Source of the DNA: an uncultured bacterium
GTDB lineage: Bacteria > Omnitrophota > Omnitrophia > Omnitrophales > Aquincolibacteriaceae
Direction of reading: 5' to 3'
DNA: 64,000 nucleotides
Assembly (NCBI GenBank): GCA_964434115.1
Contig: CAYSSX010000004.1
Coordinates: 175,688-239,687 of the forward strand
Under the pieces are notes generated by a model. It saw only the letters and a list, made by a program, of their open reading frames with translations, searched no databases and was not told the DNA's origin. The translations under genes were made by a program, and so were the position numbers. Within the stretch, counting starts at the first letter, position 1. The number at the start of each line of letters is the position of its first letter. Positions 34,034 through 57,631 of the stretch are shown here, piece after piece.

Positions 34034-34037
34034 CGGC

Positions 34038-34259: not shown

Positions 34260-34293
34260 GGAGCACCTCGCTTAAGTCCGGATTTCCGGACAA

Positions 34294-35877: not shown

Positions 35878-35879
35878 GC

Positions 35880-37187: not shown

Positions 37188-37334
37188 ACAACAATTTCCT
37201 AAGGGGGGTCATGAAAAGTTGGTCAGCCTTTCTTTGACTGTGCCTACTATACTGCAACGAACGTGCCTTTTAAATAAAAACTTTCCAAAACTCTTGCCGA
37301 CGGTCCCTCCCCTTCGAAAGGGCTCCCCAAGACC

Positions 37335-39821: not shown

Positions 39822-39912
39822 TGTTTACCTTTCTTCCTCGAAGGAAATTCACGGGGGAAGATTAACAGATTTAAAAGGAACCATTCAAGAATGAATTCTT
39901 AGCACCTGGAGT

Positions 39913-41956: not shown

Positions 41957-43054
41957 TTATGTTACAGGCATATGCACTTTCGGAAGAGAAAAAATAAATT
42001 TCGATCCCTTCCCCGCTTTGCTTTCAACACGAATACTGCCGCCATGAGCGGTCATAATGCCTTTACAAATGGCAAGGCCAAGCCCCGTTCCCTTTTCGCC
42101 TCCGGCCGGAGTATGCCCAAATTGCTCGAATTTATTGAAAAGCTTTTCAAGGCCTTCCTCGGGAATGCCCGCGCCCGTATCGGAAACACTGCACTCAATC
42201 GCGCCGCCCCGGTCCTCAATGCCGACACGGATTGTCCCCTGCGGGGTGAACTTCAGCGCGTTGCTCAGAAGATTGATAAAGACCTGCGAAATTTTTTCGC
42301 GGTCCGCTTCCACAAGAATGCCGGGATCCGGATAAACCTGCTGAAGTTCCAGACCGCGTGAAGCGATACTCTGCTTAAAACTCGCGCACACCTCCTGCGC
42401 CAGCGCCGCCATATTGAAGCTGGTTTTTTTAAGCTTCATTTTTCCGATTTCGATCTTGGTGAGGTCAAGCAGGTCATTGATCAAAAGGTTGAGGCGCTCC
42501 ATGTTTTTAAGCACCATGTCCAGAAAGAAGCGCTGATCTTCGGAAACCGTTCCAAGGATCCCCTCCAGGATCTGACGCAGCCCTTCGATCGAGACTGTAA
42601 GCGGCGAGCGCAGCTCATGCACCACCATGCCCATAAATTCCTCGCGGAGTTCCTGGATTTTTCTGCGTTCAAGGGCATAGCGCAGGACCCTTTCAAAAAG
42701 CTCCGGCGACATCTGGTCCTTCATCATGTAATCCTGCGCTCCTCCGGCCACCGCATCCGCGGCAATGTTTTCATCGGTAATGCCGGAACAAACAACGATG
42801 GGAACGCCTGCCGCCGACGGCTGAAGCCGGCGCAGGGTGTCCAGGCCCCGGCTGTCGGGAAGCTGAAGGTCCAGCAAAATCAGATCGAAGTGTTTCTGCG
42901 TGAGGAGTTCCAGCGATTTTTCCAGCGACGGGGCCCGCACAACGCGGTAATGGTTCACTGATTTACCAAGCCTTGACAGGAGTTTACCCATAATCAACGC
43001 ATCATCATCGTCATCTTCCACAAGCAGAACTTCAAAATCATGCTGATCCATCAT
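41957..43054 (-). CDS. Hybrid sensor histidine kinase (N-terminal receiver + HisKA + HATPase_c)
   Basis: ATG 43054 overlaps the stop of the upstream RR; ...VLLVEDDDDDALIMGKLLS...MVVHELRSPLT..., G-boxes. Confidence 0.85.
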   Translation of the reverse strand: MMDQHDFEVLLVEDDDDDALIMGKLLSRLGKSVNHYRVVRAPSLEKSLELLTQKHFDLILLDLQLPDSRGLDTLRRLQPSAAGVPIVVCSGITDENIAADAVAGGAQDYMMKDQMSPELFERVLRYALERRKIQELREEFMGMVVHELRSPLTVSIEGLRQILEGILGTVSEDQRFFLDMVLKNMERLNLLINDLLDLTKIEIGKMKLKKTSFNMAALAQEVCASFKQSIASRGLELQQVYPDPGILVEADREKISQVFINLLSNALKFTPQGTIRVGIEDRGGAIECSVSDTGAGIPEEGLEKLFNKFEQFGHTPAGGEKGTGLGLAICKGIMTAHGGSIRVESKAGKGSKFIFSLPKVHMPVT

Positions 43055-43509
43055 GGTCTCTCTTTGGGAAGTGAAACAATTCCAAACCAATAGGCATAAA
43101 TAATTTTGACGATTTCGACAAGCTCTTCAAACGTGACGGGTTTACGGATAAAGGAATTGCTGCCCAGCCCGTAAGTGTTGCCGATATCGTCTTCGGACTC
43201 GGAAGTCGTAAAAACCAGAACCGGGATTTTTTGAAACCTGGCATCGCGCTTGATTTCACGCAGCGCCTCACGGCCGTCTTTCCGGGGCATGTTTAGATCC
43301 AAGAGCATCAGGTCCGGCGCGGGAAACCTTTCAGCGCCGGAAAAAACACCGCGGTTTTCCAAATAATCCAGAAGCGCCTCGCCATCCACCGCGCGGAAAA
43401 GCCTCACGTCAAGGCGGGCCTTTTTGAAGGCCTTCTCGACCAGCATAAAATCATCGTCATCATCTTCCGCCATCAAAACAACAGGCAAAGCATGAGGTTC
43501 ATTCGGCAT
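43051..43509 (-). CDS. Single-domain response regulator
   Basis: ...VVLMAEDDDDDFMLVEKAFK...LLDLNMPRKDG...; RBS AAGGAG. Confidence 0.85.
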   Translation of the reverse strand: MPNEPHALPVVLMAEDDDDDFMLVEKAFKKARLDVRLFRAVDGEALLDYLENRGVFSGAERFPAPDLMLLDLNMPRKDGREALREIKRDARFQKIPVLVFTTSESEDDIGNTYGLGSNSFIRKPVTFEELVEIVKIIYAYWFGIVSLPKERP

Positions 43510-43518
43510 CGGTACTCC

Positions 43519-46500
43519 TTAGGGTGCCAGAGGAAGCGTAAAAATAAAAGCAGCGCCTTCTCCCGGTTTGCTTCGAGCGGTAATTTCACCGCCGTGGCGA
43601 TGGACGATTTTCTGGCATATGGAAAGGCCAATGCCTGTCCCTTCGTATTCCGATCGCGTGTGAAGTCTCTGAAAAGGAACAAAAATCCGGTCCAGGTATT
43701 TTTCATCAAACCCGATTCCGTTGTCCTTGATTCTAATTTCCTGGAAACCATTGTTCAAGGACACTCCTTCAATCTCCACGCACGGCACTTCTCCCGGCCG
43801 GCTGAATTTAAGCGCGTTTCCAAGCAGGTTCAGGAACAGCTGACTGACCTGCCCGGGATCGGCCATCACGGGAAGAAGTGTTTTCACGCTGATCCGGGCC
43901 TCGGTTTCAAGGATGCGGATTTCAAGGTCTGACAAGACTTCCGCCACCAGGGCGTTAAGGTCAACCTTCTCAAAGGGCTTGATCTTACGCATGACCCTGG
44001 AATAGGTCAGCAGGTCTTCGATGAGCTGGCGCATGCGCATCGCCCCTCCGACAATCCGGTTCAGATAGTCGTGCGCTTCATCATCCAGCCGGGATTTCTC
44101 TTTCTCTTCCAGCAGCTTGGAAAAAGAAATGATTTTTCTCAGCGGCTCCTGAAGGTCATGCGACGCCACACAGGCAAACTCTTCCAGTTCTTTATTGGAG
44201 CGCGCCAGTTCAAGGGATTTTTGCTGGAGCTGCTGCACGGCATTTCTTCTCTCGGTAATGTCTTTGACCTGCGCCACAAAAACAAGCGGCGCTCCCTGCT
44301 CATCGCGCACAAGAGATACGGCAAGGAGGCCCCAGACATAATGGCCCTTTTTATGGATATACCGTTTTTCCATGTGGTAAAAATCGATTTTCCCGGCAAG
44401 GAGCTGATTGACATTTTCCAGATCCGCATTCAAGTCGTCCGGATGAGTGATTTTTTGAAAAGTCGTTTTTAAAAGCTCTTCCTCCGAGTAGCCCAGAATC
44501 CCGCAAAGCGAACGGTTCACTTCCAGCCAGCGGCCGTCAATCCCCACAAGAGCCATGCCGATCGCGGAATGCGTAAAGGCCTCGCGGAAGCGTTCCTCAC
44601 TCTGCCGGAGTGCGATCTCGGTCTTTTTTCTTTCGGTAATGTCCTGGGAAATCCCGAGAAGGTAAAGCGGCTGGTTGTTGTCATCATAAACCGGGACTTT
44701 GATGGTATGAAGGTAACGCTCGCCCTGGTTATGGCTTTCGATTTTTTCGGAAGGAATATCCAGCGGCTTTCCGGAATCAAAAACTTCCTGGTCTTTGGCC
44801 CTGAAAAAATCCGCCTGTTCTTTGGGAAAAAAATCATAGTCCGTTTTTCCGATCACATCTTCCGCCTTCCAGCCCAGAATTTTTTCCGCGGTCGTATTCC
44901 AAAGTTCAAACATTCCAAAAAGTTCAGGTTTCGCGCTTTTGACAAACACCGAAACCGGCAGATTGTCGATCATGCTTTTCAGAAAAGTCCGGTTTTGACG
45001 AAGCGCTTGCTCCGTCTTCCGGAAATCAGAAATATCGGTGATCGTTCCCAAATACCCCTTGAGTTTGCCGCCCTTGTCTAAAACCGGAATAGCGGTTCCG
45101 AGCGCCCAGCGGACCTCTCCCTCCGAAGTTAGAACGCGCCCATCCATCACCAGGGGCCCGCCGCTTTTCAGCGCTTCTGCCCAGGCCCGAAGAACCTTTC
45201 CGCGGTCTTCCGGATGAACCGCCTGGATCCATCCATTGCCCATCATTTCCTGGTAAGAACGGCCCGCAATTTGAAGGTAGCGCTCATTGGCGAAAAAGCA
45301 GCGCCCCATGTCGTCGGTTTCAAAAATTCCAACAGGGGCATTCGTCACCAGGGTCCGGAAACGGTTTTCGCTCTCAAGAAGGGCTTCGGTCCGTTCCTGA
45401 ACGGTTTTGCGGATCACTCTTTCGCGGCTGGTCATAAGAGAAACATACTGCGAAATCATAAGGACAAAGAAAAGCACACTCCAGCAGGCCACCCAAGGCA
45501 TCCAGGAATTGATTGACCGCAAATAAGCGGCAGACGGCACACAGACAAACTCCAGGACCCGGTCGCCGATCCTCACCGTCTCTGAATAAAAAAACGGGCT
45601 ACGCGCAGCAGGCTGGCCCTGAGAAATCGGAGTCTGCCCCGCCAGCAGGGCTTCCGCATTGTAGTAATAAAGAAACTGTTTCTCCCGCGGATCCGTCTTA
45701 TCATAAATCAGCATGTTGATGGCCTTCCGCTCAGGCCGCACAAAAGTTTCTTCAAGGATGGCGCCGAGGTAGAAGGTACCCATCACAAACCCGCTAAGAC
45801 CGGCCTCTTTCTGATCCTCAGTGTCAAGCGGGACGCCCCCTTTATAAATGGGGTTTAAAATAACCAGTTTGAAATTATGCTCAGCATCATCAAAGCGCAA
45901 AAGGGGCGCCACGGTTCCCAGGCTTCCGCTTCGCGCAATTCGCCGCATGGCTTCATGACGGGTGGGATCGCTCGATACGTCAAACCCGAGGCGGTGTTTA
46001 TTGTCTTCAAAAGGAACCGTAAAAAAAATAGGGAAATAGCGGTCCTTGGCTGCGATTTCTTCGGGTTTGCCCTCCCGGTCTTTCTGATAGAAACGATAGC
46101 CTTCCAGTCCGCCGGCCCTTGCCTGCTGTTCGAAACTCTCCCTTTCCGCGCCGGAGACAAGCGGAAGCCAATCCATAGCTTTGACGCTTTTGTTCGCGGC
46201 AATACTTTCCCCGGCAAAGATGCGGAACTCATCCCTGTCGACCTGGCTGGAGCCTTTGTAAAAGGCTTTTAGGGCATTCATGACCTGAAGGTCTGCATCC
46301 ACATAGCGGCGGAAAAGAGTAATCCGGTCCTGGGCATCAGAACTGAACTGCATATAAAAACTCTTCTGCTGCTCCGCCAGAAGAATGTAATAAGTTTGCG
46401 CGGCCAGCGTCACGCCAAAAACAAAAACAAAAAACTGCGGCATCATACGGCTTCCTAAACACCAGGATTCGTACACGAGAAAAATACCCACGAGTACAAA

Positions 46501-47076
46501 ACCCAATGCCGTGTGGAAAGCCACGAGAGTAAAGAAGGCCCAGATAGAAGAACCATGCCCGCCGCTGAGGTAGCCGATCATGGAAGCACTGCCCAAGGCA
46601 AAAAGAGCGGTCCCAATGCCGCCGGTCAGAAAATGCCTGCGGGAGGCCTTGCTCCGGTCTGAAATTAAAAACGCCAGGCAAATAAGACAGAAGCAAAGCG
46701 CCGTTGTCGGCGCCATCCGCACCGGCTGAGGACTGCAGAGCGCGGCCCAAGCAGGAAGCAGCGCATCGTTGATCCCGGTTTTGGCATGAAAAAGATATTC
46801 CGCGAGCGTGAGAGCGCCCACAAAGCCCGGCACGCAGGAAAAGACCGTGTAAAAAATTCTTTTTTGCAAGGCGGCGGTAAGGACTGCGGCTCCCGTAAAA
46901 ACAAAGCAAAGCGCGGTATTGGGATGCATGTGGGCAAAAGCCGGGTTGATCTGAGTCAGCACCTCCAAATGGAAAATCCATCCGAACAGAGCCGTCAATC
47001 CAAGAAGAGTGCAAAAAGAACCGGCCGTAAGGCGCGCGCGGTTCAGACCTTTCACATCACGCATTGATTGCAGCAT
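43519..47076 (-). CDS. Large membrane sensor histidine kinase (multi-TM N-terminus, periplasmic sensor, 3-4 PAS domains, HisKA, HATPase_c)
   Basis: ~1185 aa; repeated PAS segments, ...VASHDLQEPLRKI... H-box; probable start ATG ~47076 (alternative 47064). Confidence 0.85.
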   Translation of the reverse strand: MLQSMRDVKGLNRARLTAGSFCTLLGLTALFGWIFHLEVLTQINPAFAHMHPNTALCFVFTGAAVLTAALQKRIFYTVFSCVPGFVGALTLAEYLFHAKTGINDALLPAWAALCSPQPVRMAPTTALCFCLICLAFLISDRSKASRRHFLTGGIGTALFALGSASMIGYLSGGHGSSIWAFFTLVAFHTALGFVLVGIFLVYESWCLGSRMMPQFFVFVFGVTLAAQTYYILLAEQQKSFYMQFSSDAQDRITLFRRYVDADLQVMNALKAFYKGSSQVDRDEFRIFAGESIAANKSVKAMDWLPLVSGAERESFEQQARAGGLEGYRFYQKDREGKPEEIAAKDRYFPIFFTVPFEDNKHRLGFDVSSDPTRHEAMRRIARSGSLGTVAPLLRFDDAEHNFKLVILNPIYKGGVPLDTEDQKEAGLSGFVMGTFYLGAILEETFVRPERKAINMLIYDKTDPREKQFLYYYNAEALLAGQTPISQGQPAARSPFFYSETVRIGDRVLEFVCVPSAAYLRSINSWMPWVACWSVLFFVLMISQYVSLMTSRERVIRKTVQERTEALLESENRFRTLVTNAPVGIFETDDMGRCFFANERYLQIAGRSYQEMMGNGWIQAVHPEDRGKVLRAWAEALKSGGPLVMDGRVLTSEGEVRWALGTAIPVLDKGGKLKGYLGTITDISDFRKTEQALRQNRTFLKSMIDNLPVSVFVKSAKPELFGMFELWNTTAEKILGWKAEDVIGKTDYDFFPKEQADFFRAKDQEVFDSGKPLDIPSEKIESHNQGERYLHTIKVPVYDDNNQPLYLLGISQDITERKKTEIALRQSEERFREAFTHSAIGMALVGIDGRWLEVNRSLCGILGYSEEELLKTTFQKITHPDDLNADLENVNQLLAGKIDFYHMEKRYIHKKGHYVWGLLAVSLVRDEQGAPLVFVAQVKDITERRNAVQQLQQKSLELARSNKELEEFACVASHDLQEPLRKIISFSKLLEEKEKSRLDDEAHDYLNRIVGGAMRMRQLIEDLLTYSRVMRKIKPFEKVDLNALVAEVLSDLEIRILETEARISVKTLLPVMADPGQVSQLFLNLLGNALKFSRPGEVPCVEIEGVSLNNGFQEIRIKDNGIGFDEKYLDRIFVPFQRLHTRSEYEGTGIGLSICQKIVHRHGGEITARSKPGEGAAFIFTLPLAP

Positions 47077-47194
47077 CCTGATTTTCCACTCTCTTTTAAA
47101 ACACTCATGACGCTTTGGGATACAGCTCCGCCGCGCGAGAAAACTCATTTTTTTATCGGCTTTATAAGGTTTGAACTAACGCTGCATTTAGAAG

Positions 47195-47232
47195 AAAAAA
47201 AAAGCCCCCTGCCGTTTAAAACGGCAGAGGGC
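47195..47232 (-). terminator. Rho-independent terminator (GCCCTCTGCCGT-TTTAA-ACGGCAGGGGGC followed by T9 on the minus strand)
   Basis: Downstream of the wHTH gene 47260..47481. Confidence 0.7.
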
Positions 47233-47259
47233 CGGATCCCCATCAAAAGCAGAAGGTTT

Positions 47260-47481
47260 TTAGACGCCTGAAGTCAGAAGTGAGACCTTGACGCCCTTGC
47301 CTTGCTTTGCGACATTGATTTTGTCTTCCCTCGCAAGCCAGCCAATGGCCTGGTTAAAGAGAGCCGTGTCTTCGACACCGACTTCTTTCTGAAGTTTCGA
47401 GGGCGTCAGAGCGCCTTGTTTTTCAAGGATCTGAAAAATTCTTCCCGCTGTTTCACCGATGAAATAATAATTTTCCTGCAT
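47260..47481 (-). CDS. Small winged-helix protein (DUF2582-like), paralog of 34038..34259
   Basis: MQENYYFIGETAGRIFQILEK...FNQAIGWLAREDKI...; RBS GAGGTGA. The ORF-track extension to 47736 is unsupported. Confidence 0.6.
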   Translation of the reverse strand: MQENYYFIGETAGRIFQILEKQGALTPSKLQKEVGVEDTALFNQAIGWLAREDKINVAKQGKGVKVSLLTSGV

Positions 47482-47542
47482 AAACTCACCTCGCGTTTGA
47501 AAGTTCAAACATAGGTTCATTATAGGCCTGTAAAGACGGCTG

Positions 47543-49030
47543 TCAAAAGGCATAATGCCGCAAAGGCTTAAAAAAATGGACTTCTCCGGGCCCCAGCTCC
47601 ACATACAGCCCATGCGCCTTAAGCTCGCTTTGACTTCTCTGATACACCACCCCTGAAAAAAGGTCTTCCAGATAAAGATTTTCCGATAAATCCGGGAAAA
47701 CCCAGGGAATGCGCGCAGAGCAGCGGCCCTCGGCAAGGTTCAGCACGCCAAGCCGCCAATCTTCCCCCAAGGTCCAGGCTGTGACCATAATATGATGGTA
47801 AGAGGGGTCCGCGTCCCAGGAGGGACGGGGTTGAAGAATTTGCCACAACCCTTTCTTTAACAAAGGCTTAGAACATTCATTCCAGAGTTTTTCATAAAAC
47901 CCTTTAAGAGCCTCATGCACAGGCTCTTCCGGCCCCCGGGCCAGCTGCACAGGGATGTGGCGGGCGGCCCCTTCCGCCTGCCCGTCATGAAAAAAGCGCA
48001 TTCCGGGCTGAAGCGCGCAGGCCAGCGCCGCGGCTTTGGAGCGCTCTCCGAGGAACACCTCCGCGGCCCGCATTTCATCATGATTTTCAATAAACCGGAC
48101 CATGCGCGTCTCCAGGCCCTCCTGAGAAAGCAGATGCCTTCTCGCTCCGTCCGCAGACCCTGCCCGCAATTGATCGTAAAATTTTTTGTCGTACACAAGG
48201 TCAAACCCAAGGTCCAAAAGTTTTTTTTCCAGGTCCCAGTAAACTTCCGCCATAAAAAGAAACTTCGGGTAGCGGGCTTTCACGGTCCGGATGGCTTCTT
48301 TCCAAAACTCTTCGGCAGGCGCCTTCAAACGCACGGTTTCTCCCCAGACGCGTGAAAAGACCTCGTTCAGCCCGAGCATCGCCATATCGCAGCGGACACC
48401 GTCAGCCACCGCGGCAATATGAAGAAGCTCCCCGGTCATTTTCTCCCGCATCTCGGCGGAAAAAAAATTCACCTGGACCGTATCAATCCAGGGTTCAAAA
48501 TAAGGGTCACGGCCGTGGGCCAGCCACGCGCCGCCCTCAGTTTTAAAAAACCAGCCCGGGTGATTCTTGAGATCGGTTTTGGAAGCGCGCACAAAAAGTT
48601 CGGGATGAGAAAGCGTCCAGGGGTGGTCAAAGGCAAGGTGGTTGGGAACAAAGTCCAGAATCACTTTCAGGCCTGCTGCGTTCAGTTTCTTTTTGATTTT
48701 CACCAAAACACTGGGCGGGCCCAAAAAGGGATCGCGCTCATAACCGTAAACCGCGTAGGGAGACCCTGTAATATCAGCCTCGGTCCAGCCGGGTAAAAGC
48801 GCGTCATAAATTTTGATTTGATTCGGGTGGGTCAGCGCGATTTTCCGCGCGCCGGGACTTCTTTTCCACACGCCCATGAGCCAGACATAATCAAACCCCT
48901 TTTGCTTCAGGCTTTCCCATTCGGCATCGGAAACTTCGTCAAGCGTGAGGGCTCGCCCCGCCTCACGGCGTTTCCGGTTCAGCCAGACAAAGGTATTGAG
49001 TTCCATCATCTGCGCGGATTCCAAAAGCAC
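47543..49030 (-). CDS. GH13-family alpha-amylase-like enzyme (cytoplasmic glycosidase / transglucosidase)
   Basis: GH13 regions: ...VILDFVPNHLAFDHPW..., ...GVRCDMA..., ...FIENHDE... . Start uncertain (GTG 49030, TTG ~49020 after AAGGAG, or ATG at MMELNTF). Confidence 0.7.
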   Translation of the reverse strand: MLLESAQMMELNTFVWLNRKRREAGRALTLDEVSDAEWESLKQKGFDYVWLMGVWKRSPGARKIALTHPNQIKIYDALLPGWTEADITGSPYAVYGYERDPFLGPPSVLVKIKKKLNAAGLKVILDFVPNHLAFDHPWTLSHPELFVRASKTDLKNHPGWFFKTEGGAWLAHGRDPYFEPWIDTVQVNFFSAEMREKMTGELLHIAAVADGVRCDMAMLGLNEVFSRVWGETVRLKAPAEEFWKEAIRTVKARYPKFLFMAEVYWDLEKKLLDLGFDLVYDKKFYDQLRAGSADGARRHLLSQEGLETRMVRFIENHDEMRAAEVFLGERSKAAALACALQPGMRFFHDGQAEGAARHIPVQLARGPEEPVHEALKGFYEKLWNECSKPLLKKGLWQILQPRPSWDADPSYHHIMVTAWTLGEDWRLGVLNLAEGRCSARIPWVFPDLSENLYLEDLFSGVVYQRSQSELKAHGLYVELGPGEVHFFKPLRHYAF

Positions 49031-49036
49031 TCCTTT

Positions 49037-50683
49037 TTATTTTTGCGGCTTACGGCCCTTGTCAGAAACCCAGAATTCCAGATACCGGCCCAGCATCAGC
49101 CGGGTCTGCGCATCCAAAGCCGGGAGAGCGCTGAAGAAAATAACAATCGGCGGGACGAGAAACCACTCAAAGGCATGAATGGCGCGGATAAAAAGAGACT
49201 GTTTGGTTTTGCTTTTGGGAAGAAGAAAAAGGCTCAGGATAATCGTTGCCAAAAGCGATACAAAGGCCAGGTTGAAAATCGTCGTGCTGATACGCGGCGC
49301 GCTGTAATACAAAACAGAGTTGGCGTATTCGCGGCTCGCAAAAAGCGCGGGCATCCACCCGATCACGGCCAGCAGAAAAGGCCACGTGGCCCAGGCCAGA
49401 TGCCCCTCAAAAAGCTTGAACCCGTAAAGAACTTTGGAGCGGAACGGAATGCCTTTGGAGCGCAGAAAACCGCGCATGACAATCGGAAAATTCTCAACCC
49501 CCCAGGCCCAGCGGCGTTTCTGTTTATACACATGCACCGCTGTTTTAAAAAGACTGCCCGCGTCAATCACATCCATTGAGACCGTGATGTACATGGGAAC
49601 GGCCCGGTAGTCGCCGTCATAGTGAAGAAGGGATTTCCAGAAAATCGCGGAGTCATCCGAGATCATGTCCACCGGCCAGTAATCCACTTCGACGAGCGCC
49701 TTGAAACTCATGCTGTGGCTTGAAAAAGTCACCAGCTTGTCGGGGTCTGTCGCTTCCGTAAGCTGGAAAAAAGAGGCCCCGGTTTCCAGCACCCGCGCGA
49801 ACCCCGGGACATCCCAGATGTTGTTGTGATACACCGGGACCGGCTGAAAGCTGGCGCGGAAACGGTTGGGACAAATCATAAAACTATACGTCAGGCACGC
49901 GAAGTAATTCATGCTGACCACGGTGTCCGCGTCGAAACAGGAAATGACAATATTTTCGAAGGCCACTTCTCTTTCCTTAAAATACTCCGCGGCCTGGCGC
50001 GCGGCATAAGTGATGTTCGCGCCTTTGACGCGCGCTTCCCCCGGAATGCCCGAGGGGTGATAGATCACGAGAAAATCCCGGAAGTCTTTCTTGTATTTTT
50101 TCTTCAGCTCTTCGGCGCCCTGCTTCACATCGTCCTTGGCCCTGTCCTCAAGCGCCAGCACCATCACGATACGCGAAGCGGGGTAACTTCCCCTCGCAAT
50201 GCTCTCAATACCCGGCTCCAGAACATCCCGGCTTTCCTTGATCGCGGGAATCACCACCAGATGCACGATTTCATCGGATTGGGGCGGAGGAAAAACGCTT
50301 TCTTTGATCCGCTCGATCTCCTGCCGGTAAATCCACGCTGAAATCTTGCGCTTGAGGTTCCAGCCTTTCACGCGCGGCGGATTTAATTCTCCTCCCGCGA
50401 GAAAAACATCCAAAGCCTTGACCCGGCCAAACCAATCTGTTTTTTCTTCAAGCGAAAGGCGGAAGTAGGAAAGACAAAGAAAAATCGTGATGTAAAACAT
50501 CCTCAGCAGCCAGTAGAAATTGAAAACAATCATCACAATCGCGGCCGCGACCGGTTTGGTAAAAGAAAGCGTGATCATTCCCAGAATCACAAACCAGCTG
50601 GCGGCCCCGGGAAGAATTTCAAAAAGCCTTTCCAGCCGGGCTTCGCGGGGCGAAAGGTTGTGCCGTGAAAAATGAAATTTCAT
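49037..50683 (-). CDS. Processive family-2 glycosyltransferase (cellulose-synthase-like membrane-embedded polysaccharide synthase)
   Basis: N- and C-terminal TM bundles, ...ISCFDADTV... (DxD), ...QKRRWAWG... (QxxRW). Confidence 0.8.
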   Translation of the reverse strand: MKFHFSRHNLSPREARLERLFEILPGAASWFVILGMITLSFTKPVAAAIVMIVFNFYWLLRMFYITIFLCLSYFRLSLEEKTDWFGRVKALDVFLAGGELNPPRVKGWNLKRKISAWIYRQEIERIKESVFPPPQSDEIVHLVVIPAIKESRDVLEPGIESIARGSYPASRIVMVLALEDRAKDDVKQGAEELKKKYKKDFRDFLVIYHPSGIPGEARVKGANITYAARQAAEYFKEREVAFENIVISCFDADTVVSMNYFACLTYSFMICPNRFRASFQPVPVYHNNIWDVPGFARVLETGASFFQLTEATDPDKLVTFSSHSMSFKALVEVDYWPVDMISDDSAIFWKSLLHYDGDYRAVPMYITVSMDVIDAGSLFKTAVHVYKQKRRWAWGVENFPIVMRGFLRSKGIPFRSKVLYGFKLFEGHLAWATWPFLLAVIGWMPALFASREYANSVLYYSAPRISTTIFNLAFVSLLATIILSLFLLPKSKTKQSLFIRAIHAFEWFLVPPIVIFFSALPALDAQTRLMLGRYLEFWVSDKGRKPQK

Positions 50684-52158
50684 ACTTCCCGGATCTCGCT
50701 TTCTTTGCGTTCTTCCAAAAGATTGGGCAGTGTTAAAAATTTGATTTTCCGTTTCGGCAGGATCTCAAGCGCTGAAAGCGCTCCGCCGGATTCGGCCAGG
50801 TAGTAAAGCTTACCGGTATCATCGGAATAATAGATCATGCTGTCTTTTTTAACGTCCACGATGGGGTTGACCTGGGATTGGCCAAAACCTTCCAGTTCCA
50901 GAAGCGAGACATGCTGCCCGTCCCGGAAAAGAATATGCGCGCCTTCAAAGACCCAAAAGGCCTGGCGGATATCCGAGCCGTCACGAAACACTGAAATCAA
51001 GCGGACCCCTTTTTCAAAAATTTCCTTTTCCGCCGGCATGCGCCTGAAATCCAGAACACTGATGCTGTCCGGCCCCCAGGCCAAAACCTTACGCGGGCCT
51101 ACCAAAAAAGTCCCGCCGTAAAACTCCATTCCGGAAACCCCTGTCTCCGTGTGCACATAAGGAAGGCGGTTGCTGACCAGCTTCCCGTCCCGGCCCAGGA
51201 AGAGAACAAGGTCACGGGAAAACACATGAAGGGAGTACTCGTCCGTCTCACCCAGCAGGGTTTTCACAAGGTCGGCATCGCGGGACAAAAGCTTCCGGCC
51301 TTCCCCGTCCATTTCCTGCATGAGGAGGGTGTTATCTTTTTTCAGGGCATACACCCCCTTTTCAAAAAGCCCGATGCCCCGCACGTCTTTGAGAAAACCC
51401 GGAGACACCGTATTTTTTCCGGCATCCACCCGGTTCACAGTCCCTTCCCGGACCGCGAAAAGAACATCCTCGGCGGCCCCGTTCCAGACCACGGTTTCCG
51501 GCGATTCTAAAAACAACGGCGTCAAGTCTTGGGGGACTTCGTCATCAGCCTTGAAAAGAAGGTAGCGGTGCTTATTCGAGGCTTCGTCGGTTTCAAAAAG
51601 AATCAGCGGGCTGTCTTCCCTGACAAAAAATCTTGAGAAGCGAACACCGGCCATCCCTGCTTTCGAAGACACCAGCGGACGGACTTCCTCGCTCCGGGTA
51701 TCAAACACCTGGACATCCGAAAGCTTTGAAGTGCGGGTGAGGAGAAGCCGGGTGCCGCGGGCAAACGGGACAAAGTCCCGGAAACTCTCTTCGGCCAAAA
51801 TTTCCGGCTTGAATTCCTCGGGAAGCAGAAGGATTTTGTCGATAACCGTAGCCTTGCCGGCTTCCACGGGAAGGTTTTGGTTCCACGGCTTATAACCTTT
51901 AAGGGAAAGGGTCAGAGGGTATTCGCCCGGCATCAGGTCAAGCATCAGGGAGGGGGTCGGCTGCTCCAGTAGTTTTCCGGACAAAGTGACCGAGGCCCCT
52001 GCCGGCACGGTCGCGGCATAGATCAAGCCTGTCTTCACAATCCCCTGTTCATGCCCTGGTTTAAACAAATACCCCAAGGCATAGAGTACAATTAAAGGAC
52101 AGAAGACAATAAAGATCAGGGAAAAAAAGTAGAAAACAATTTTTCGAAGCAGTCCCAT
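50680..52158 (-). CDS. Membrane-anchored PEGA-domain protein with a C-terminal beta-rich domain
   Basis: N-terminal TM, then PEGA-like ...ATVPAGASVTLSGKLLEQPTPSLMLDLMPGEYPLTLSLKGYKPW...; 4 nt overlap with the GT2 synthase start. Confidence 0.6.
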   Translation of the reverse strand: MGLLRKIVFYFFSLIFIVFCPLIVLYALGYLFKPGHEQGIVKTGLIYAATVPAGASVTLSGKLLEQPTPSLMLDLMPGEYPLTLSLKGYKPWNQNLPVEAGKATVIDKILLLPEEFKPEILAEESFRDFVPFARGTRLLLTRTSKLSDVQVFDTRSEEVRPLVSSKAGMAGVRFSRFFVREDSPLILFETDEASNKHRYLLFKADDEVPQDLTPLFLESPETVVWNGAAEDVLFAVREGTVNRVDAGKNTVSPGFLKDVRGIGLFEKGVYALKKDNTLLMQEMDGEGRKLLSRDADLVKTLLGETDEYSLHVFSRDLVLFLGRDGKLVSNRLPYVHTETGVSGMEFYGGTFLVGPRKVLAWGPDSISVLDFRRMPAEKEIFEKGVRLISVFRDGSDIRQAFWVFEGAHILFRDGQHVSLLELEGFGQSQVNPIVDVKKDSMIYYSDDTGKLYYLAESGGALSALEILPKRKIKFLTLPNLLEERKESEIREV

Positions 52159-52222
52159 GAATCCGCACTTTGTTTTTTAAGGAAAGAGCCGTAGTATAAC
52201 CAACTTCCTGGGCCCATACAAA

Positions 52223-53545
52223 ATGATTCAAAAATATAGTTCAACGCCTTACTATCGAAGCCTTGACGCCTCCTGGAAAGAAGGGGTCGCGGCCAGCGTC
52301 ATGCTGGCAGTGTCCGAATACTACCTTATTCCCTTCGGCCTGGTGCTTGGAGCATCGTCCCTTGAGATCGGCCTTTTGGTCGCGATTCCTCAGCTGCTCG
52401 GTTCCTTTGCCCAGCTTTTAGCCGTCCGCCTTGTCAAACTTTTGGGAAGCCGCCTTCTGTTTCTGGTTCAGGGAGTGTACCTGCAGGCCGCAATCCTGAT
52501 TCCCATGGCCATGGCGCCTCTTTTTCCCGATGAGTGGCGCGTGGGAATGTTCATTGCTTTGGCAACGGCCTTCCGTATTGTCGGCAATTTGATCGGTACG
52601 GTCTGGGGCAGTTTGGCCAGCGATTACCTTCCGGCCGAGGAGCGCGGGCAGTATTTCGGATGGCGCGCCCGGATCACCGGAATCGCCGGGGTTCTCAGCA
52701 CGCTGGGCGGCGGGATTCTCCTTTATTTTTCCAAGCAATGGACCCATGCCGCGGCAGGCTTCACGGTCCTTTTTCTAGTGATTTCCTTTGCCCGCTTTGT
52801 TTCAGGTTCCCTGATGGCCCGCATGCAGGACATTCCTTTTGAACATGAGCAGGGCGGCAGCTTTACTTTCATCCGCTTTCTGATCCGCTCCCGGGAAAGC
52901 AACTTTTTCAAATTCCTGATTTACGTGGCCAGCATTACTTTTGCCGTGCAGCTGGCCGGCCCTTATTTCAGCGTTTACCTTCTGCGGGATCTCAAATTCG
53001 ATTATCTTTCTTTCACCGGCGTTCAGCTGGCCTCCGTCATCGGCGGGCTCGTGGCCTTTCCCATCTGGGGCCGCCACGCGGACCATGTCGGAAACGCGAC
53101 GCTTTTAAAACTGGGAAGTTTTCTGATTCCTCTGATTCCGTTTCTCTGGCTGATTTCCCCGCACCCCTTCTACCTCATGGCGGTGGAAACTTTTTCAGGA
53201 TTCGTTTTCGGAGGGTTTGGTTTGTGCGCGGTGAATTTTATTTTTGATGCGGTCAGCCAGCCCAAACGCGTTCAATGCCTGAGTTATTTCGCGCTCTTCT
53301 GCGGCATCTCGATTTTTGCGGGCGCCGCGCTCGGCGGTATTTTGGCGGACCGTCTTCCCCTGTTCGGGGGTTCAAGCCTGGGTTCGCTGTTTATTATCTC
53401 AGGAGTTTTGAGAGGGCTTTCTCACTTCGCGCTCGCGGGAAAATTCACGGAAGTCCGGACCAACACGAAAAAAGTTTCCAGCAGCCAGCTCTTCTTCAGT
53501 GCCTTTGGCGTCAAATCCCTTTTCAGGAGATCCCGGGAGACCTGA
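52223..53545 (+). CDS. MFS transporter
   Basis: 12 predicted TM helices, 440 aa. Confidence 0.8.
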   Translation: MIQKYSSTPYYRSLDASWKEGVAASVMLAVSEYYLIPFGLVLGASSLEIGLLVAIPQLLGSFAQLLAVRLVKLLGSRLLFLVQGVYLQAAILIPMAMAPLFPDEWRVGMFIALATAFRIVGNLIGTVWGSLASDYLPAEERGQYFGWRARITGIAGVLSTLGGGILLYFSKQWTHAAAGFTVLFLVISFARFVSGSLMARMQDIPFEHEQGGSFTFIRFLIRSRESNFFKFLIYVASITFAVQLAGPYFSVYLLRDLKFDYLSFTGVQLASVIGGLVAFPIWGRHADHVGNATLLKLGSFLIPLIPFLWLISPHPFYLMAVETFSGFVFGGFGLCAVNFIFDAVSQPKRVQCLSYFALFCGISIFAGAALGGILADRLPLFGGSSLGSLFIISGVLRGLSHFALAGKFTEVRTNTKKVSSSQLFFSAFGVKSLFRRSRET

Positions 53546-53562
53546 CAGAGCAGACAGGCCCT

Positions 53563-53784
53563 TCAGAAATGAAAGGCCTGATCTTCCACCAGTTTATATT
53601 TGATCTTCACTTCGTTTAATTTCTTCTCAATGGCCAGGAACATGGCCTTGATCTCATCCGCGGTATATTCGTAGGTATGCCGGTTGGCGCAGTGGCCGAG
53701 AATATCCAGCTTCTTAAGAACTTCATTGGTGCGGCTTCCCGCAAGCCTCTTGAAACGCTCGCGCCTGACTTCAGGTGTTTCCAT
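53563..53784 (-). CDS. Small hypothetical protein (73 aa)
   Basis: RBS AAGGAGG 5 nt upstream of ATG 53784. Confidence 0.45.
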   Translation of the reverse strand: METPEVRRERFKRLAGSRTNEVLKKLDILGHCANRHTYEYTADEIKAMFLAIEKKLNEVKIKYKLVEDQAFHF

Positions 53785-53894
53785 AAATTCCTCCTTATAG
53801 AATAGGTTCCTAACGGGTTATGAATAGAACCTTACCCTATGGATTGGGTTCTTTCCAGTCACGCGCTGTTTCTTTTTTAAGGGGAATTCCGGGG

Positions 53895-54431
53895 TTAGCT
53901 GTGTTCAACTTTGACGAGGATATAACTGTCTTCCTGGCCGGGGATTTTTTTGAGGAACAATTTCATTTTATCTTTGCCCGGAGAGTCCCAGGACTTGATG
54001 CCGAAGGTTTCAATGGGGTTGCGAACCGCGACCTTGAGCCATTCTTTTTCTTCTTCCTGCTCAGGCTCTTCAAAATCCAGGGTCAGAAGTTTAAGCGCCT
54101 TACGGCCTTTGGCCGCTTCTTTCATTTGTTGAAACTTGGTGGGGCCTTGAAGTTTAATCTTTCCAAACTGCCCGCGGAAGGTTCTTTTAATCAGGAAAGA
54201 CACCACAGCCTGCGGATTGGCACGGTTCTCGGGATTATTTTCAACAGCATCGATCACTGTTTTCGGACTTAACGCTTTGACCCGCACGGGAACAGCCACA
54301 ACACCAATGTCATAATCCGAGGCGTCATAAACAGGCAAACCGTCAGGGGCGGTTTCCGCGGCTGCCGGTAAAACTTGAAAAATAAAGACCGCAAAAAAAA
54401 CAGCGGCAAAGCTCAAAAGGGTCTTTTTCAT
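53895..54431 (-). CDS. Secreted hypothetical protein (signal peptide)
   Basis: MKKTLLSFAAVFFAVFIFQVLPAAA... Confidence 0.5.
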   Translation of the reverse strand: MKKTLLSFAAVFFAVFIFQVLPAAAETAPDGLPVYDASDYDIGVVAVPVRVKALSPKTVIDAVENNPENRANPQAVVSFLIKRTFRGQFGKIKLQGPTKFQQMKEAAKGRKALKLLTLDFEEPEQEEEKEWLKVAVRNPIETFGIKSWDSPGKDKMKLFLKKIPGQEDSYILVKVEHS

Positions 54432-54495
54432 ATTTCTCGCTTTCGCAGGGAATCCGGAATTTTATCCTCAAAACCTTTTCATGCCAAGGAAAAGA

Positions 54496-55752
54496 CTAGG
54501 TATTTTTGACCCGCCGGGCGGCTCCGGCCGCGGCCGTGACACCGCTCGACCAGGCCCATTGAAAGTTAAACCCCCCGATACGGCCGTCCACATCCAGGAT
54601 CTCCCCGGCAAAGAAAAGGCCCGGCTGCAGGCGTGATTCCATGGTGGCGTCATCGACTTCTGTCAAATCCACGCCCCCGGCCGTCACTTCAGCCTTGGCA
54701 TAGCCGGCGGACCCGCTGACCGAAAGAGAAGCCCGGAGAATTCCCTTCACCAGCGCTTCGCGTTCCTCCCGGGACACCTGATTCATAATCCGGTTCTCCG
54801 GAAGCCCTGCCTTTTTAATCAGCATGACCGCCAGTTTTTCCGGAAGTTCCAGGGCCAGAAAATTTTTCACCATCATTTTCGGATTTTCTGAGAGGGCCCC
54901 GGCCAGCGCCTTGCGTAAATCATCTTCATGAAGCGCGGGCAGAAAATTCGCGGTCAGAACCGCGGACGCATCGTTAAGACGGATCCAATGCCTGCTGATA
55001 TTCAAAACCACAGGGCCGCTGTAGCCCGTATGTGTAAAAAGAAACGAGCCTTCATACTCGACGTTTTTTTCTTTTCCCGCGTAAAGCGTGAGGCGCACCG
55101 GTAAGGTCACGCCGGACAGGCTTTTCCAATCCGCATCAGCGGTCAAAAGCGGGGTCAGCGAAGGCGATGTCGGAATAAGCGAATGCCCAAAGGCCTGTGC
55201 CAGCGCGTAACCCGATCCATCAGAACCGCTGGTAGGAAAAGACAACCCTCCGGTGCAAAGCACCACGGTTTTCGCCTGACACACTGCCCCGGCCTGGGCT
55301 TTCACGTTAAAAACAGAACCTTCCCGCTGAACACTCTCCACTTTAAAACCGGTCACAAGATTGACACCTATACGGGCCGCTTCGCGCGTCAGTGCTTCAA
55401 GCACCGTACGGCCTGAATGCGTGGCCGGAAAATACTTTCCGCCCGGTTCCAGCACCAGCTCCACCCCCAATTTTTGGAAAAACTCCACGGCCTTAGGCGC
55501 GGGAAAAGCCCTCAGCACATTCCTCACCTGCCTGATCTGCATGCTTTGAAAATCCCGCTCGCTGACCTTTTCATTCGTCACATTACAGCGGGTGCCGCCG
55601 GACATGAGAATTTTGGCGCCGATCTTTTCCCTTCCATCCAGAAGGAGCACGCTCAACCCCTGGGTTCGGGCCGAAATCGCGGTCATAAGGCCGGCCGCGC
55701 CGGCGCCTACCACCGCCATATCCGCCACTTCAGCCAGATTGTCTTGCATCAT
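54496..55752 (-). CDS. NAD(P)/FAD-dependent oxidoreductase, HI0933/BaiN-like family
   Basis: ...VVGAGAAGLMTAISARTQGLSVLLLDGREKIGAKILMSGGTRCNVTN...; likely start ATG 55752 (RBS GAAAGG). The ORF-track N-terminus MSPRYPVPLRKA (to 55788) is encoded by the repeat element. Confidence 0.85.
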   Translation of the reverse strand: MMQDNLAEVADMAVVGAGAAGLMTAISARTQGLSVLLLDGREKIGAKILMSGGTRCNVTNEKVSERDFQSMQIRQVRNVLRAFPAPKAVEFFQKLGVELVLEPGGKYFPATHSGRTVLEALTREAARIGVNLVTGFKVESVQREGSVFNVKAQAGAVCQAKTVVLCTGGLSFPTSGSDGSGYALAQAFGHSLIPTSPSLTPLLTADADWKSLSGVTLPVRLTLYAGKEKNVEYEGSFLFTHTGYSGPVVLNISRHWIRLNDASAVLTANFLPALHEDDLRKALAGALSENPKMMVKNFLALELPEKLAVMLIKKAGLPENRIMNQVSREEREALVKGILRASLSVSGSAGYAKAEVTAGGVDLTEVDDATMESRLQPGLFFAGEILDVDGRIGGFNFQWAWSSGVTAAAGAARRVKNT

Positions 55753-55765
55753 TGCCTTTCTTAAA

Positions 55766-55827
55766 GGTACCGGGTACCTAGGGGACACGTAACTTTGTTA
55801 CATTTCCCCAAGCAGGTACCCGGTACC
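55766..55827. repeat. GGTACC-type palindromic repeat element, full copy (GGTACCGGGTACC - GGGGACACGTAAC..GTTACATTTCCCC - GGTACCCGGTACC)
   Basis: Perfect 13 bp terminal inverted repeats; the central degenerate palindrome 55781..55809 is related to 10274..10299. Confidence 0.8.
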
Positions 55828-56442
55828 ATTTTATTTTCATTTTTACACACTCTTTACTTCAGTCCCGGGCCGGACCGTGCCGAAACATTAGATGCAACAA
55901 AGGAGGACATTATCGTCGAATTCGATTGGATTCTCCATCTCATGACCTTTCTTAATTGCCCTGAGAAAAAACCGCATGACCCGCGCGCCGAAGAGCAAGA
56001 GCCTTTGGCAGCCTGAAGCGGGCCGGCCGGAGCAGTCCCGTCCGGCAGCCGGCAGCGGCAAATCCCCTCACGAATCCCCATACCCTTTTTTCGAACGAGC
56101 GTCTTTTAACAGCGGGGGAATTCCCTTGTCTCATAAAAGGAGTTTCTCTGTCAACCTCCGGAGGCATCTCTATGACGAGCCTTAAACGTTTTTTCATGAT
56201 GCGTTCCCTGCTCAAAGTCAAAGCCCCGTCGAATAAATACCGCCGGGACAAAAGCTGTTAAAACAGAAGTAACCGCTCTTTAATCACCCTGTCAGGTTAA
56301 ACCCGCAGCATTTATTTTAGGCTGTCCCGGGTGGTGAATTTTATACCCTTCCCCGCGTCTTAAAGCTGGAGCCTTCCCCAAGTTTCAATTATAATGCGCC
56401 TTCTTATAAATGATGATTCGTTTTTTACCTGGAGCGCTTCCG

Positions 56443-57186
56443 ATGAAAAATAAAAAAATCTCCTCTTTCCTTGTTTTCTCCTTCATGATTTTTGCCTTTG
56501 CCGCAGCTATTCCCTTCGCGCTCGCGCAGGCCCCGGAAACCGCAGGAACTTCACCCTCGCTTTCAACCGCCATCAAAGGCATGACGCTTTGGCAGGTCAT
56601 TCAGGCCGGCGGCATTGTCATGGCGGCGCTCGGAGTCCTCTCTCTTCTGATGACGGCCCTTGTTATTTTTATGTTCCTGCGGTTCAATCAGGAAAAACTT
56701 CTCCCAGTTGAAAGCACCCGCCGCCTTATCGCCCTTTTAAGACAAAAGCGTTTCGACGAAGCGGAAAAGGTCTGCGCCACGGATGATTCCCCGGTCTCCA
56801 ACATTGTCAAAGCCGGGTTGAGCACCAAGGGTGACCTCAGCCTGTCGCGTGAGTATGTTGAAATGGCGGCCCGTAAAGAAGTGACTTCGCTCTGGACCCT
56901 CATGAACTACCTTTCCGAAGTGGCCCAGATTTCTCCGATGATGGGACTTCTCGGAACCGTGCTCGGTATGATCCAGGCCTTCAACACCATTGCCTTTGAT
57001 TCCGGCGTGGTTAAACCGATCATGCTTGCGGGCGGTGTTGCCAAGGCCATGATCACAACGGCCGGCGGCCTCACCATCGCCATCGCGGCCATGATTTTCT
57101 ATTCCTTGTTAAGACCGCGGGTTCAGAACATCACGAACCTGCTTGAAACCATTACCACCCAGATCTCGGAGAGTTTTTCAAAATGA
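56443..57186 (+). CDS. exbB: MotA/TolQ/ExbB proton-channel family protein with an N-terminal signal/extension
   Basis: ...MTLWQVIQAGGIVMAALGVLSLLM...SPMMGLLGTVLGMIQAF...; ATG 56443 has RBS GGAG. Confidence 0.85.
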   Translation: MKNKKISSFLVFSFMIFAFAAAIPFALAQAPETAGTSPSLSTAIKGMTLWQVIQAGGIVMAALGVLSLLMTALVIFMFLRFNQEKLLPVESTRRLIALLRQKRFDEAEKVCATDDSPVSNIVKAGLSTKGDLSLSREYVEMAARKEVTSLWTLMNYLSEVAQISPMMGLLGTVLGMIQAFNTIAFDSGVVKPIMLAGGVAKAMITTAGGLTIAIAAMIFYSLLRPRVQNITNLLETITTQISESFSK

Positions 57187-57611
57187 TCCGCCTTGATCCG
57201 CCGGAGACACGCAAGGCTTTCCCCACCGTCCAGATCGCGCCTTTCATCGACATTGTTTTCATGACGCTCATCTTCTTCATGACGCTCTCGGTTTATTACC
57301 AGCTTGAAAACGAAGTTTCGATCAGCGTTCCGAAAGCCGAGGAATCCAAGGAAGTCACCCGCAGCCCGGGCGAAATTATAATCAACGTGGACAGCAAGGG
57401 CGCGATGATTGTCAACCAGCGGGTCCTTGATCAGGCGGGTCTGGCCGAAATGCTCAAACGTGTTTCCTCCCTCTACCCGAACCAGCCGGTCATTATCCGG
57501 GCGGACAGAAAAACCCATCATGAAAATGTGATGCGGGTCCTGGACGCCTGCGCCTCCGCGCATATCTGGAACATCGCTTTCGCCACTGTCAAAGAAGAAC
57601 CCAAGCATTAA
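57183..57611 (+). CDS. exbD: ExbD/TolR biopolymer transport protein
   Basis: ...APFIDIVFMTLIFFM... single TM plus periplasmic domain; overlaps the exbB stop. Confidence 0.85.
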   Translation: MIRLDPPETRKAFPTVQIAPFIDIVFMTLIFFMTLSVYYQLENEVSISVPKAEESKEVTRSPGEIIINVDSKGAMIVNQRVLDQAGLAEMLKRVSSLYPNQPVIIRADRKTHHENVMRVLDACASAHIWNIAFATVKEEPKH

Positions 57612-57631
57612 GCTCGATCTGAGGGCGTTCT

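Follow-up and report, generated by a model that had tools for sequence, protein, structure and literature searches.

The question raised by this locus is whether three adjacent genes act as a single pathway for polysaccharide synthesis. The genes encode a PEGA-domain protein, a membrane-embedded glycosyltransferase of family GT2 and an enzyme resembling glycoside hydrolases of family GH13, and they lie on the minus strand of contig CAYSSX010000004.1 from an uncultured bacterium of the phylum Omnitrophota, within a stretch of 64,000 nucleotides that we call the window. A sequence-only reading of this DNA had proposed the three genes as an uncharacterised synthesis module, perhaps joined by a divergent MFS transporter, and had left unexplained why a glycosyltransferase expected to form beta linkages should be paired with an enzyme that acts on alpha-glucosides. 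Comparison with related genomes leads to a different division of the locus. The genes for the PEGA protein and the GT2 form a pair that recurs across the phylum, and we consider it probable, with a good deal of room for doubt, that this pair is the functional unit, a two-component beta-glycan synthase-translocase in which a protein combining a PEGA domain and a propeller serves as a new kind of periplasmic partner. In the simplest reading of the sequence comparisons, the GH13 gene would encode a cytoplasmic alpha-glucan enzyme that belongs to the adjacent glycogen gene neighbourhood and lies outside the conserved module.

The PEGA gene (50680..52158, minus strand; 492 amino acids) stands first in the direction of reading and was identified by its open reading frame and by the Pfam PEGA model. 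It is followed by the GT2 gene (49037..50683, minus strand; 548 amino acids), identified by its open reading frame and motifs, and then by the GH13-like gene (47543..49030, minus strand; 495 amino acids), which is AmyB-like and was identified by the Pfam Alpha-amylase model. All three open reading frames are confirmed where the sequence-only reading had placed them. The junction between the PEGA stop codon and the GT2 start codon reads GTATGAAA, in which the two genes share the four nucleotides ATGA (50680..50683, minus strand). This overlap, together with a single N-terminal hydrophobic helix in the PEGA protein, bears out the earlier claim that the GT2 is translationally coupled to a PEGA protein with a transmembrane anchor.

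Relatives of the GT2 were scanned using one genome per GTDB species. They are encoded in at least 593 GTDB genome stretches, of which the best 80 loci were examined. According to a preprint, Omnitrophota comprises somewhat more than 700 species in GTDB R232, and the GT2 is therefore close to being a core gene of the phylum. The best 80 loci all come from Omnitrophota metagenome-assembled genomes or from the complete genome of Ca. Velamenicoccus archaeovorus, some of the metagenome-assembled genomes being labelled 'uncultured Planctomycet*'. In V. archaeovorus (NZ_CP019384), the GT2 gene occupies about 492435-494066. A PEGA homologue is encoded immediately upstream of the GT2 gene on the same strand in 83 of 83 loci (23-59% identity, usually over the full length). 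The spacing between the two genes is -4 nucleotides in 42 of the 80 loci and falls between -35 and +31 nucleotides in 78 of them. At one locus (L091) the GT2 is just 38% identical to that of the window, yet both the PEGA gene and the 4-nucleotide overlap are retained. No outer-membrane exporter, whether a porin or a TPR protein, is conserved beside the pair among the 79 loci whose neighbouring genes were clustered.

Sufficient downstream sequence to judge the gene that follows the GT2 gene was available in 72 of these 79 loci. In 19 of the 72, the next gene on the same strand encodes a hydrolase of clan GH-A of about 355 amino acids (L006, L011, L012, L018, L019, L021, L028, L030-L033, L035, L048, L053, L055, L056, L064, L067 and L068; an example is the gene at L053:8642-9715). 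When the loci are sorted by GT2 sequence cluster, every judgeable member of two clusters has the hydrolase gene (14 of 14 and 4 of 4), as does a single member of a third. Each of the 19 proteins carries a signal peptide at its N terminus. Their matches in Pfam are the TIM-barrel models GH42 (3.8e-15), GH10 (5.6e-9) and GH2_C, and those in the PDB are structures of GH42, GH35, GH10, a GH5 mannanase, GH158 and PslG. The motifs WQxENEP and TELQAEPW, which are invariant in these proteins, correspond to the two catalytic glutamates of clan GH-A. Since the members of clan GH-A are retaining beta-glycosidases, a secreted enzyme of this kind encoded after a synthase, by analogy with BcsZ, PslG and CcsZ, would give indirect support for a beta-linked polymer product. 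The hydrolase has no close characterised relative, and no homologue of it is present in the 64-kb window.

The GT2 protein carries the motifs of a membrane-embedded enzyme of the cellulose-synthase type, as had been proposed from its DxD and QKRRW sequences. The segments SCFDADT (containing D251/D253), ISDDS (D343/D344) and QKRRW (Q388-W392) are invariant among 27 homologues, and the motifs invariant in the same set comprise E..VKGAN, SCFDADT, FQP.PV..NNIW, VTFSSHSMS, SDDS and Q..RWAWGVEN. In 118 distant cluster representatives (25-50% identity), residues D251, D253, D344, Q388, R391 and W392 are at least 90% conserved. Because the identity to BcsA, PgaC, CrdS, HAS and NodC is only about 12-21%, comparisons of profiles and folds were used instead of a GT2 phylogeny. 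HHalign relates the GT2 profile to E. coli BcsA with a probability of 97.5% (E 7e-12) and pairs HAKAGN of BcsA with VKGAN, DCD with DAD, FFCGS with FSSHS, TED (in VTEDA) with SDD (in ISDDS), and QRIRWARG with QKRRWAWG. The alignment with E. coli PgaC (97.3%) covers 323 columns and reaches the C-terminal transmembrane helices.

The AlphaFold2 model of the GT2 (pLDDT 80.9, pTM 0.83) begins with two long helices at the N terminus, followed by a GT-A domain, a long helix at 378-408 that bears QKRRW, and a C-terminal helical bundle of about three or four long helices, with the chain ending at residue 548 right after the last of them. When this model is compared with known structures by Foldseek, BcsA ranks first and PcManGT (6yv7) second, followed by viral and vertebrate hyaluronan synthases and yeast Chs1, with E values of about 6e-10 to 1e-6. 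Pfam finds neither a PilZ domain nor any other regulatory domain in the protein. A precomputed match to PF13632 (Glyco_trans_2_3) is present in most of its homologues, and the GT2 family is a divergent outlier. Its homologues make up more than 3561 clusters, at about 57-63% identity over the full length, and those that are named are nearly all Candidatus Omnitrophota; searching the whole library with HMMER yields 319 clusters (50% level) with E < 1e-30. Remote full-length relatives, at 28-35% identity, exist in Patescibacteria, Coriobacteriia and Brevibacterium, and those at L084, L085 and L090, from Coriobacteriia, Brevibacterium litoralis and probably Patescibacteria, are annotated just as hypothetical or as GT2. 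Judged by its profiles and its predicted fold, the enzyme is best regarded as a diverged lineage within the superfamily of membrane-integrated GT2 synthases, outside the Bcs, Pga and Opg families.

The partner matches the Pfam PEGA model (PF08308) over residues 46-108 with 34.5 bits against a cut-off of 20.8 (2e-8). Its AlphaFold2 model (pLDDT 86.5) contains a helix at residues 2-27, a PEGA beta-sandwich at about 44-110 and an all-beta domain at about 119-465. For the latter domain, Foldseek returns beta-propellers, namely Lp49 (3bws, 1e-10), WD40 proteins and BamB; the leptospiral antigen Lp49 combines an Ig-like domain with a propeller. The basic residues flanking the helix are biased to its N-terminal side (3.0 versus 1.0 on the C-terminal side in 39 homologues), and an N-in, C-out topology with periplasmic soluble domains is therefore predicted. 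The partner would thus be a signal-anchored protein that carries a PEGA beta-sandwich and a beta-propeller in the periplasm. Conservation is concentrated in the region of the helix (R5, F9, P21, Y26, A27, G29, Y30 and P34), whereas the propeller is just about 35% identical. This is the pattern expected if the helix packs against the synthase in the membrane, as, to judge from the aligned sequences, it probably does.

Several synthase systems that have been characterised in other bacteria resemble the pair in part. BcsA, like the GT2, is embedded in the membrane and has DxD, TED-like, FFCGS-like and QxxRW motifs; BcsB, like the partner, is co-encoded with its synthase and has a single transmembrane anchor and beta-rich periplasmic domains; and a glycoside hydrolase is encoded downstream in the Bcs system as it is, in some genomes, after the pair. 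However, the catalytic domains of BcsA and the GT2 are just about 21% identical, and E. coli BcsA has 872 amino acids, whereas the GT2 has 548 and contains no PilZ domain or cyclic di-GMP module. The partner differs from BcsB in being encoded upstream of the synthase and in having its anchor at the N terminus and a PEGA domain with a beta-propeller, and HHalign gives a probability of only 0.15% for the two. Neither the BcsC porin nor BcsZ has a homologue among the conserved neighbours in the 79 loci or near the window locus; BcsZ is a GH8 enzyme, whereas the hydrolase of the pair, where present, belongs to clan GH-A. PgaC/PgaD (IcaA/IcaD) is similar in that the synthase is of a comparable size class and needs a small or separate membrane partner. 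In this case, the difference lies in the score of the GT2 against the NCBIfam model PgaC_IcaA, TIGR03937 (22.1 bits, cut-off 422.3), and in the partner, since PgaD is a small peptide with two transmembrane segments and the partner described here is a periplasmic protein of 492 amino acids. Genes for PgaD, PgaB and PgaA are not found beside the pair, and the scanned flanks of the window locus (25614-47148 and 52223-61689) contain no Bcs, Pga or Alg partner genes, in agreement with the earlier statement that the usual partners are missing.

In addition, Streptomyces CslA-GlxA-CslZ, Listeria PssC/D/Z and Clostridioides CcsA/B/Z each combine a synthase, an anchored extracytoplasmic partner and a secreted hydrolase, the same logic as in the relatives that have the hydrolase gene. 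GlxA, too, has a beta-propeller borne on an N-terminal membrane anchor; it acts as a copper radical oxidase, whereas the partner of the GT2 shows no catalytic signature of that kind, and homology of the partner to the proteins of these systems is not expected. The hydrolases of the Csl, Pss and Ccs systems belong to GH6 and GH8, whereas that of the Omnitrophota relatives belongs to clan GH-A. In the layout of its genes, the pair agrees with opgG-opgH of E. coli, in which the gene for a periplasmic protein comes first and overlaps the GT2 gene by 8 nucleotides and which, like the pair, has no outer-membrane exporter. Despite the equal layout, homology to OpgG and OpgH was rejected by HHalign (15% for GT2/OpgH and 0.3% for partner/OpgG).

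The following mechanism can be proposed for the pair. From the gene order and its conservation, the motifs, the profile homology to BcsA and PgaC and the fold predictions, we infer a processive synthase with a beta-linked product, contact between the two proteins and a periplasmic location of the partner, as well as the nature and destination of the polymer. The GT2 would polymerise a nucleotide sugar on the cytoplasmic face of the inner membrane, and its product would be expected to carry beta linkages, since enzymes of family GT2 work with inversion of configuration. The growing beta-glycan chain may thread through a channel formed by the enzyme's own transmembrane helices. Translational coupling would ensure that the partner is made in a fixed proportion to the GT2, and its conserved helix may dock on the synthase in the inner membrane, so that the PEGA domain and the propeller could receive, guide or organise the emerging glycan in the periplasm. 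The partner would then take the role that BcsB has for BcsA, with an unrelated fold. Where the GH-A enzyme is present, that is, in about a quarter of the species, it may trim or release the chain, as do BcsZ, PslG and CcsZ. With no gene for an outer-membrane exporter beside the pair, the glycan may remain in the periplasm or envelope, or may leave through machinery that is encoded elsewhere.

A number of observations weigh against the proposal of a two-component beta-glycan synthase. At the level of sequence, the window GT2 scores 24.3 bits against PF13641 and 19.5 bits against PF13632, both below the gathering cut-off of 27. Sequence searches of the PDB give no match to the GT2 with either the single sequence or a profile of 27 close homologues, and a profile of 118 sequences reaches E values of only 0.14-0.7 (PcManGT first, then chitin synthase and cellulose synthases). 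At the level of structure, the Foldseek TM-scores for the GT2 model are about 0.4, and by a simple hydrophobicity count of the C-terminal helices the basic C-terminal tail comes to lie on the 'wrong' membrane side, so that the proposed channel topology is tentative. One of the top structural matches, PcManGT, is no polymer synthase, and the GT2 enzymes of QxxRW type include non-processive lipid glycosyltransferases. As for the gene pair, no partner of the PEGA family was detected beside the remote GT2 relatives at one Coriobacteriia locus and one Brevibacterium locus, nor was one detected at L090, which is probably from Patescibacteria and where the upstream gene is cut by the end of the contig. 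The GH-A hydrolase is linked to the pair in just about 26% of the species. Finally, in the library searched there was no paper that describes the pair or any partnership between a PEGA protein and a synthase, nor did the literature found there on Omnitrophota glycosyltransferases and on V. archaeovorus bear on the pair, which at the same time agrees with the earlier description of the module as uncharacterised.

The main rival explanation is that the GT2 is a non-processive or short-chain lipid glycosyltransferase, which acts on diacylglycerol, a ceramide-like lipid or polyprenol phosphate in the manner of MGlcDAG synthase, GtrB or PcManGT, and that the partner uses or flips the resulting glycolipid on the periplasmic side. 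The second rank of PcManGT (6yv7) in the Foldseek comparison and its first rank in the weak profile search are consistent with this explanation, as is the pattern D...DxD...QxxRW, which is established also for lipid glycosyltransferases of GT2/GT21; moreover, the pair has no linked outer-membrane exporter, and a GT2 identity of about 60% throughout the phylum would suit a core role in envelope lipids. However, the profiles match the polymer synthases BcsA and PgaC best, a similarity that takes in an FFCGS-like acceptor motif and, for PgaC, the C-terminal transmembrane helices; the structural matches consist mostly of BcsA, hyaluronan synthases and Chs1; and a secreted endo-type hydrolase of clan GH-A after the GT2 in 19 of the 72 loci is sensible for a polymer. 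On this evidence, we regard a lipid glycosyltransferase as unlikely. Another explanation, which concerns only the destination of the product and is otherwise compatible with a two-component synthase, is that the pair makes an oligosaccharide or polysaccharide that is retained in the periplasm, as with OpgG/OpgH, and not a polymer of the cell surface or matrix. The order and coupling of the genes, which agree with E. coli opgG-opgH, the lack of a conserved porin or TPR exporter beside the pair and the seemingly constitutive, core-like occurrence of its genes throughout the phylum would fit such a product; the absence of homology to either Opg protein argues against it, and we think it improbable.

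A third explanation returns to the question with which we began. In this case, the PEGA, GT2 and GH13 genes would form one three-gene pathway, in which the GH13 enzyme primes, trims or recycles the product of the GT2, or the GT2 extends an alpha-glucan primer, and the MFS protein supplies or exports a sugar. The layout of the window locus speaks for such a pathway. The GH13 gene is on the same strand as the pair, and a Shine-Dalgarno sequence, AAAGGAG, lies directly 3' of the GT2 stop codon TAA. The candidate start codons of the GH13 gene are GTG at 49030, TTG at 49024 and ATG at 49009, and the gap to the GT2 gene is accordingly 6-27 nucleotides; the distance of 7 nucleotides given by the sequence-only reading is roughly right as to the closeness of the genes, while its single value depends on the start codon. 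Database gene calls use the ATG, which yields 488 amino acids, and the true start is probably the TTG or the ATG. No terminator in the interval between GT2 and GH13 is comparably strong to a hairpin whose stem of 14 bp is followed by a T-run at 47203..47233 (minus strand), 3' of the next gene. That gene (47260..47481, minus strand; 73 amino acids) encodes a winged-helix protein of the DUF2582 family (Pfam, 2.5e-15). Besides this terminator-like site, it has its own promoter-like site, which agrees fully with the sigma-70 consensus (TTGACA-16-TATAAT, 12/12 matches), at 47519..47546 on the minus strand; this site overlaps the stop codon of the GH13 gene and sits upstream of the DUF2582 gene. From the sequence signals, the terminator-like hairpin would close a transcription unit of PEGA, GT2, GH13 and DUF2582, and the GH13 gene is probably co-transcribed with the pair in the lineage of the window.

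The same order of genes, from the MFS gene through PEGA, GT2, GH13 and DUF2582 to the sensor kinase, is retained in two relatives. One of these, L004, is the closest relative (GT2 74% identity) and also has the MFS gene and two further upstream genes. The other, L088, is a metagenome contig of the same clade (GT2 77%, GH13 59%), in which the order continues from the divergent MFS gene through the pair, GH13, a 69-amino-acid DUF2582 homologue at the same position and the CHASE/PAS kinase to GlgB and GlgP; the DUF2582 gene is a lineage-specific neighbour. The catalytic residues of the GH13 protein, moreover, are intact. The protein scores 30 bits against the Pfam Alpha-amylase model (cut-off 22), its regions I-IV (DFVPNH, GVRCDMA, AEVYW and FIENHDE) are invariant in 28 homologues, and the conserved residues are D126/N130/H131, R213/D215, E262 and H317/D318, with Asp215/Glu262/Asp318 as the catalytic residues. 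Since the latter are invariant, the enzyme is probably active.

The occurrence and predicted location of the GH13 protein argue against a shared pathway. Only one of the 80 GTDB species loci, namely L004, has a GH13 homologue at a distance of up to 7 kb from the GT2 gene; the other 79 lack it within that range. Conversely, where the GH13 family was followed through 80 metagenome loci, none has a PEGA, GT2-family or MFS neighbour; the commonest neighbour in such loci is a GH63/MGH1-like glucosidase (16/58). The family itself is large (more than 7749 clusters, about 47% identity) and is found in Omnitrophota, Chloroflexota/Dehalococcoidales and Elusimicrobiota. The protein has no hydrophobic segment and no signal peptide, and therefore cannot reach a secreted polymer. 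Against the PDB, the family profile matches Thermotoga neapolitana AmyB best (4gkl, 3e-21), followed by a Lactobacillus amylase and GlgE maltosyltransferases (5e-12), so that the nearest solved relatives are AmyB 4gkl, 3dhu and GlgE. AmyB is an intracellular maltose-forming amylase, and it has the GH13 regions and the Asp/Glu/Asp triad in common with the window protein, which is likewise predicted to be cytoplasmic; the two are distant, and the single sequence gives just E 3e-8. In the window, the gene adjoins those of GlgB, GlgP and the GH57 enzymes, and in another Omnitrophota contig (L086) the MFS gene accompanies GH13 and not the GT2. We thus consider a three-gene pathway highly improbable.

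Of the claims that motivated the question, the description of the GH13 enzyme as cytoplasmic and of alpha-glucan type agrees with the lack of a hydrophobic segment and with the AmyB-like profile, and the divergent MFS gene (52223..53545, plus strand, 64 nucleotides from the PEGA gene) does exist (Pfam MFS_1, 6.6e-22). The placing of GH13 in the same functional module is not supported, because its adjacency to the pair is limited to L004 and L088 and is not conserved in relatives. The MFS protein probably does not belong to the module either. With GH13 not conserved beside the GT2, the apparent paradox of a beta-forming and an alpha-acting enzyme comes down to the way genes are arranged in a single lineage; the hydrolase that is stably linked to the pair (19/72) belongs to clan GH-A, a beta-glycanase type, and not to GH13, and the conflict disappears.

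The genes beside the pair vary among lineages. An MFS homologue adjoins PEGA-GT2 only in L004 and L088, and the MFS protein was rejected as a member of the module, as it adjoins the pair in the clade of the window only and lies beside GH13 in L086. In the latter contig, an MFS homologue (46% identity) stands upstream of the GH13 gene in divergent orientation, the PEGA-GT2 pair is missing from the interval, and a gene for a membrane protein of the MarC family is situated between the MFS and GH13 genes. A MarC gene also adjoins PEGA-GT2 in 9 of the 79 loci (for example, L001, L002/L003 and L007). These arrangements hint at an older syntenic block, MFS-MarC-(PEGA-GT2)-GH13, that may have been rearranged lineage by lineage. 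A gene for a HAD hydrolase adjoins the GH13 gene in both L086 and L087.

On the other side of the GH13 and DUF2582 genes, the window contains genes for a 1209-amino-acid sensor kinase with CHASE, several PAS and HisKA-HATPase domains (43519-47148, minus strand) and for a hybrid response-regulator/kinase (41957-43090, minus strand), both of which sit between GH13/DUF2582 and the glycogen genes, an order that is retained in L088. The alpha-glucan cluster that follows (31541-41889, minus strand) encodes GlgB, a GH13-type branching enzyme with CBM48 (39913-41889), GlgP (37335-39821), a DUF4912 protein (35880-37187), a GH57-type branching enzyme (34294-35877) and a protein with GH57 and DUF3536 domains (31541-34033), all on the minus strand, and thus has two kinds of branching enzyme, GH13-type and GH57-type. 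Directly downstream (25614-30300, minus strand) are genes for a ROK-family kinase (29314-30300), a Ppx/GppA phosphatase (27755-29317) and polyphosphate kinase, Ppk (25614-27758), again all on the minus strand, which together with the alpha-glucan cluster make up a 'storage polymer' region. Further away, a GT87-family membrane protein (13850-15199, plus strand; PF09594, 5e-23) is another candidate envelope glycosyltransferase. Upstream of the locus, a MotA/ExbB-family protein, a 791-amino-acid TPR protein and a VWA-domain protein are encoded in a row (56410-61689, plus strand); this row is not conserved beside the pair in relatives. Searches for riboswitches and other RNA families in 46500-54500 and for tRNA genes in the 64-kb window gave no hits.

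As a lead from the sequence and model comparisons, the pair of PEGA-propeller protein and GT2 would belong among the synthase-dependent polysaccharide systems, in which the type of periplasmic subunit and the conservation across an uncultivated phylum would be new. Omnitrophota are abundant, uncultivated and mostly ultra-small bacteria that are thought to be attached to other microbes or to prey on them, and we are aware of almost nothing concerning their surface chemistry. A more far-reaching proposal, which we put forward tentatively as possible rather than probable, is that the pair is an undescribed two-component synthase, a near-universal part of the Omnitrophota core, in which the class of PEGA and beta-propeller proteins replaces partners of the BcsB type, and that it makes an essential beta-glycan of the envelope or surface, for example, for the cell envelope itself or for adhesion to prey or host. 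A synthase that is conserved at about 60% identity, and that hundreds of species encode next to one and the same partner gene, is a strong candidate for the maker of a phylum-defining envelope or surface glycan. For the study of polysaccharide secretion, the pair would add a synthase family that has no solved relative detectable by sequence, as well as a new architecture of periplasmic partner, and the wider family, which includes the remote GT2 relatives, is likewise uncharacterised.

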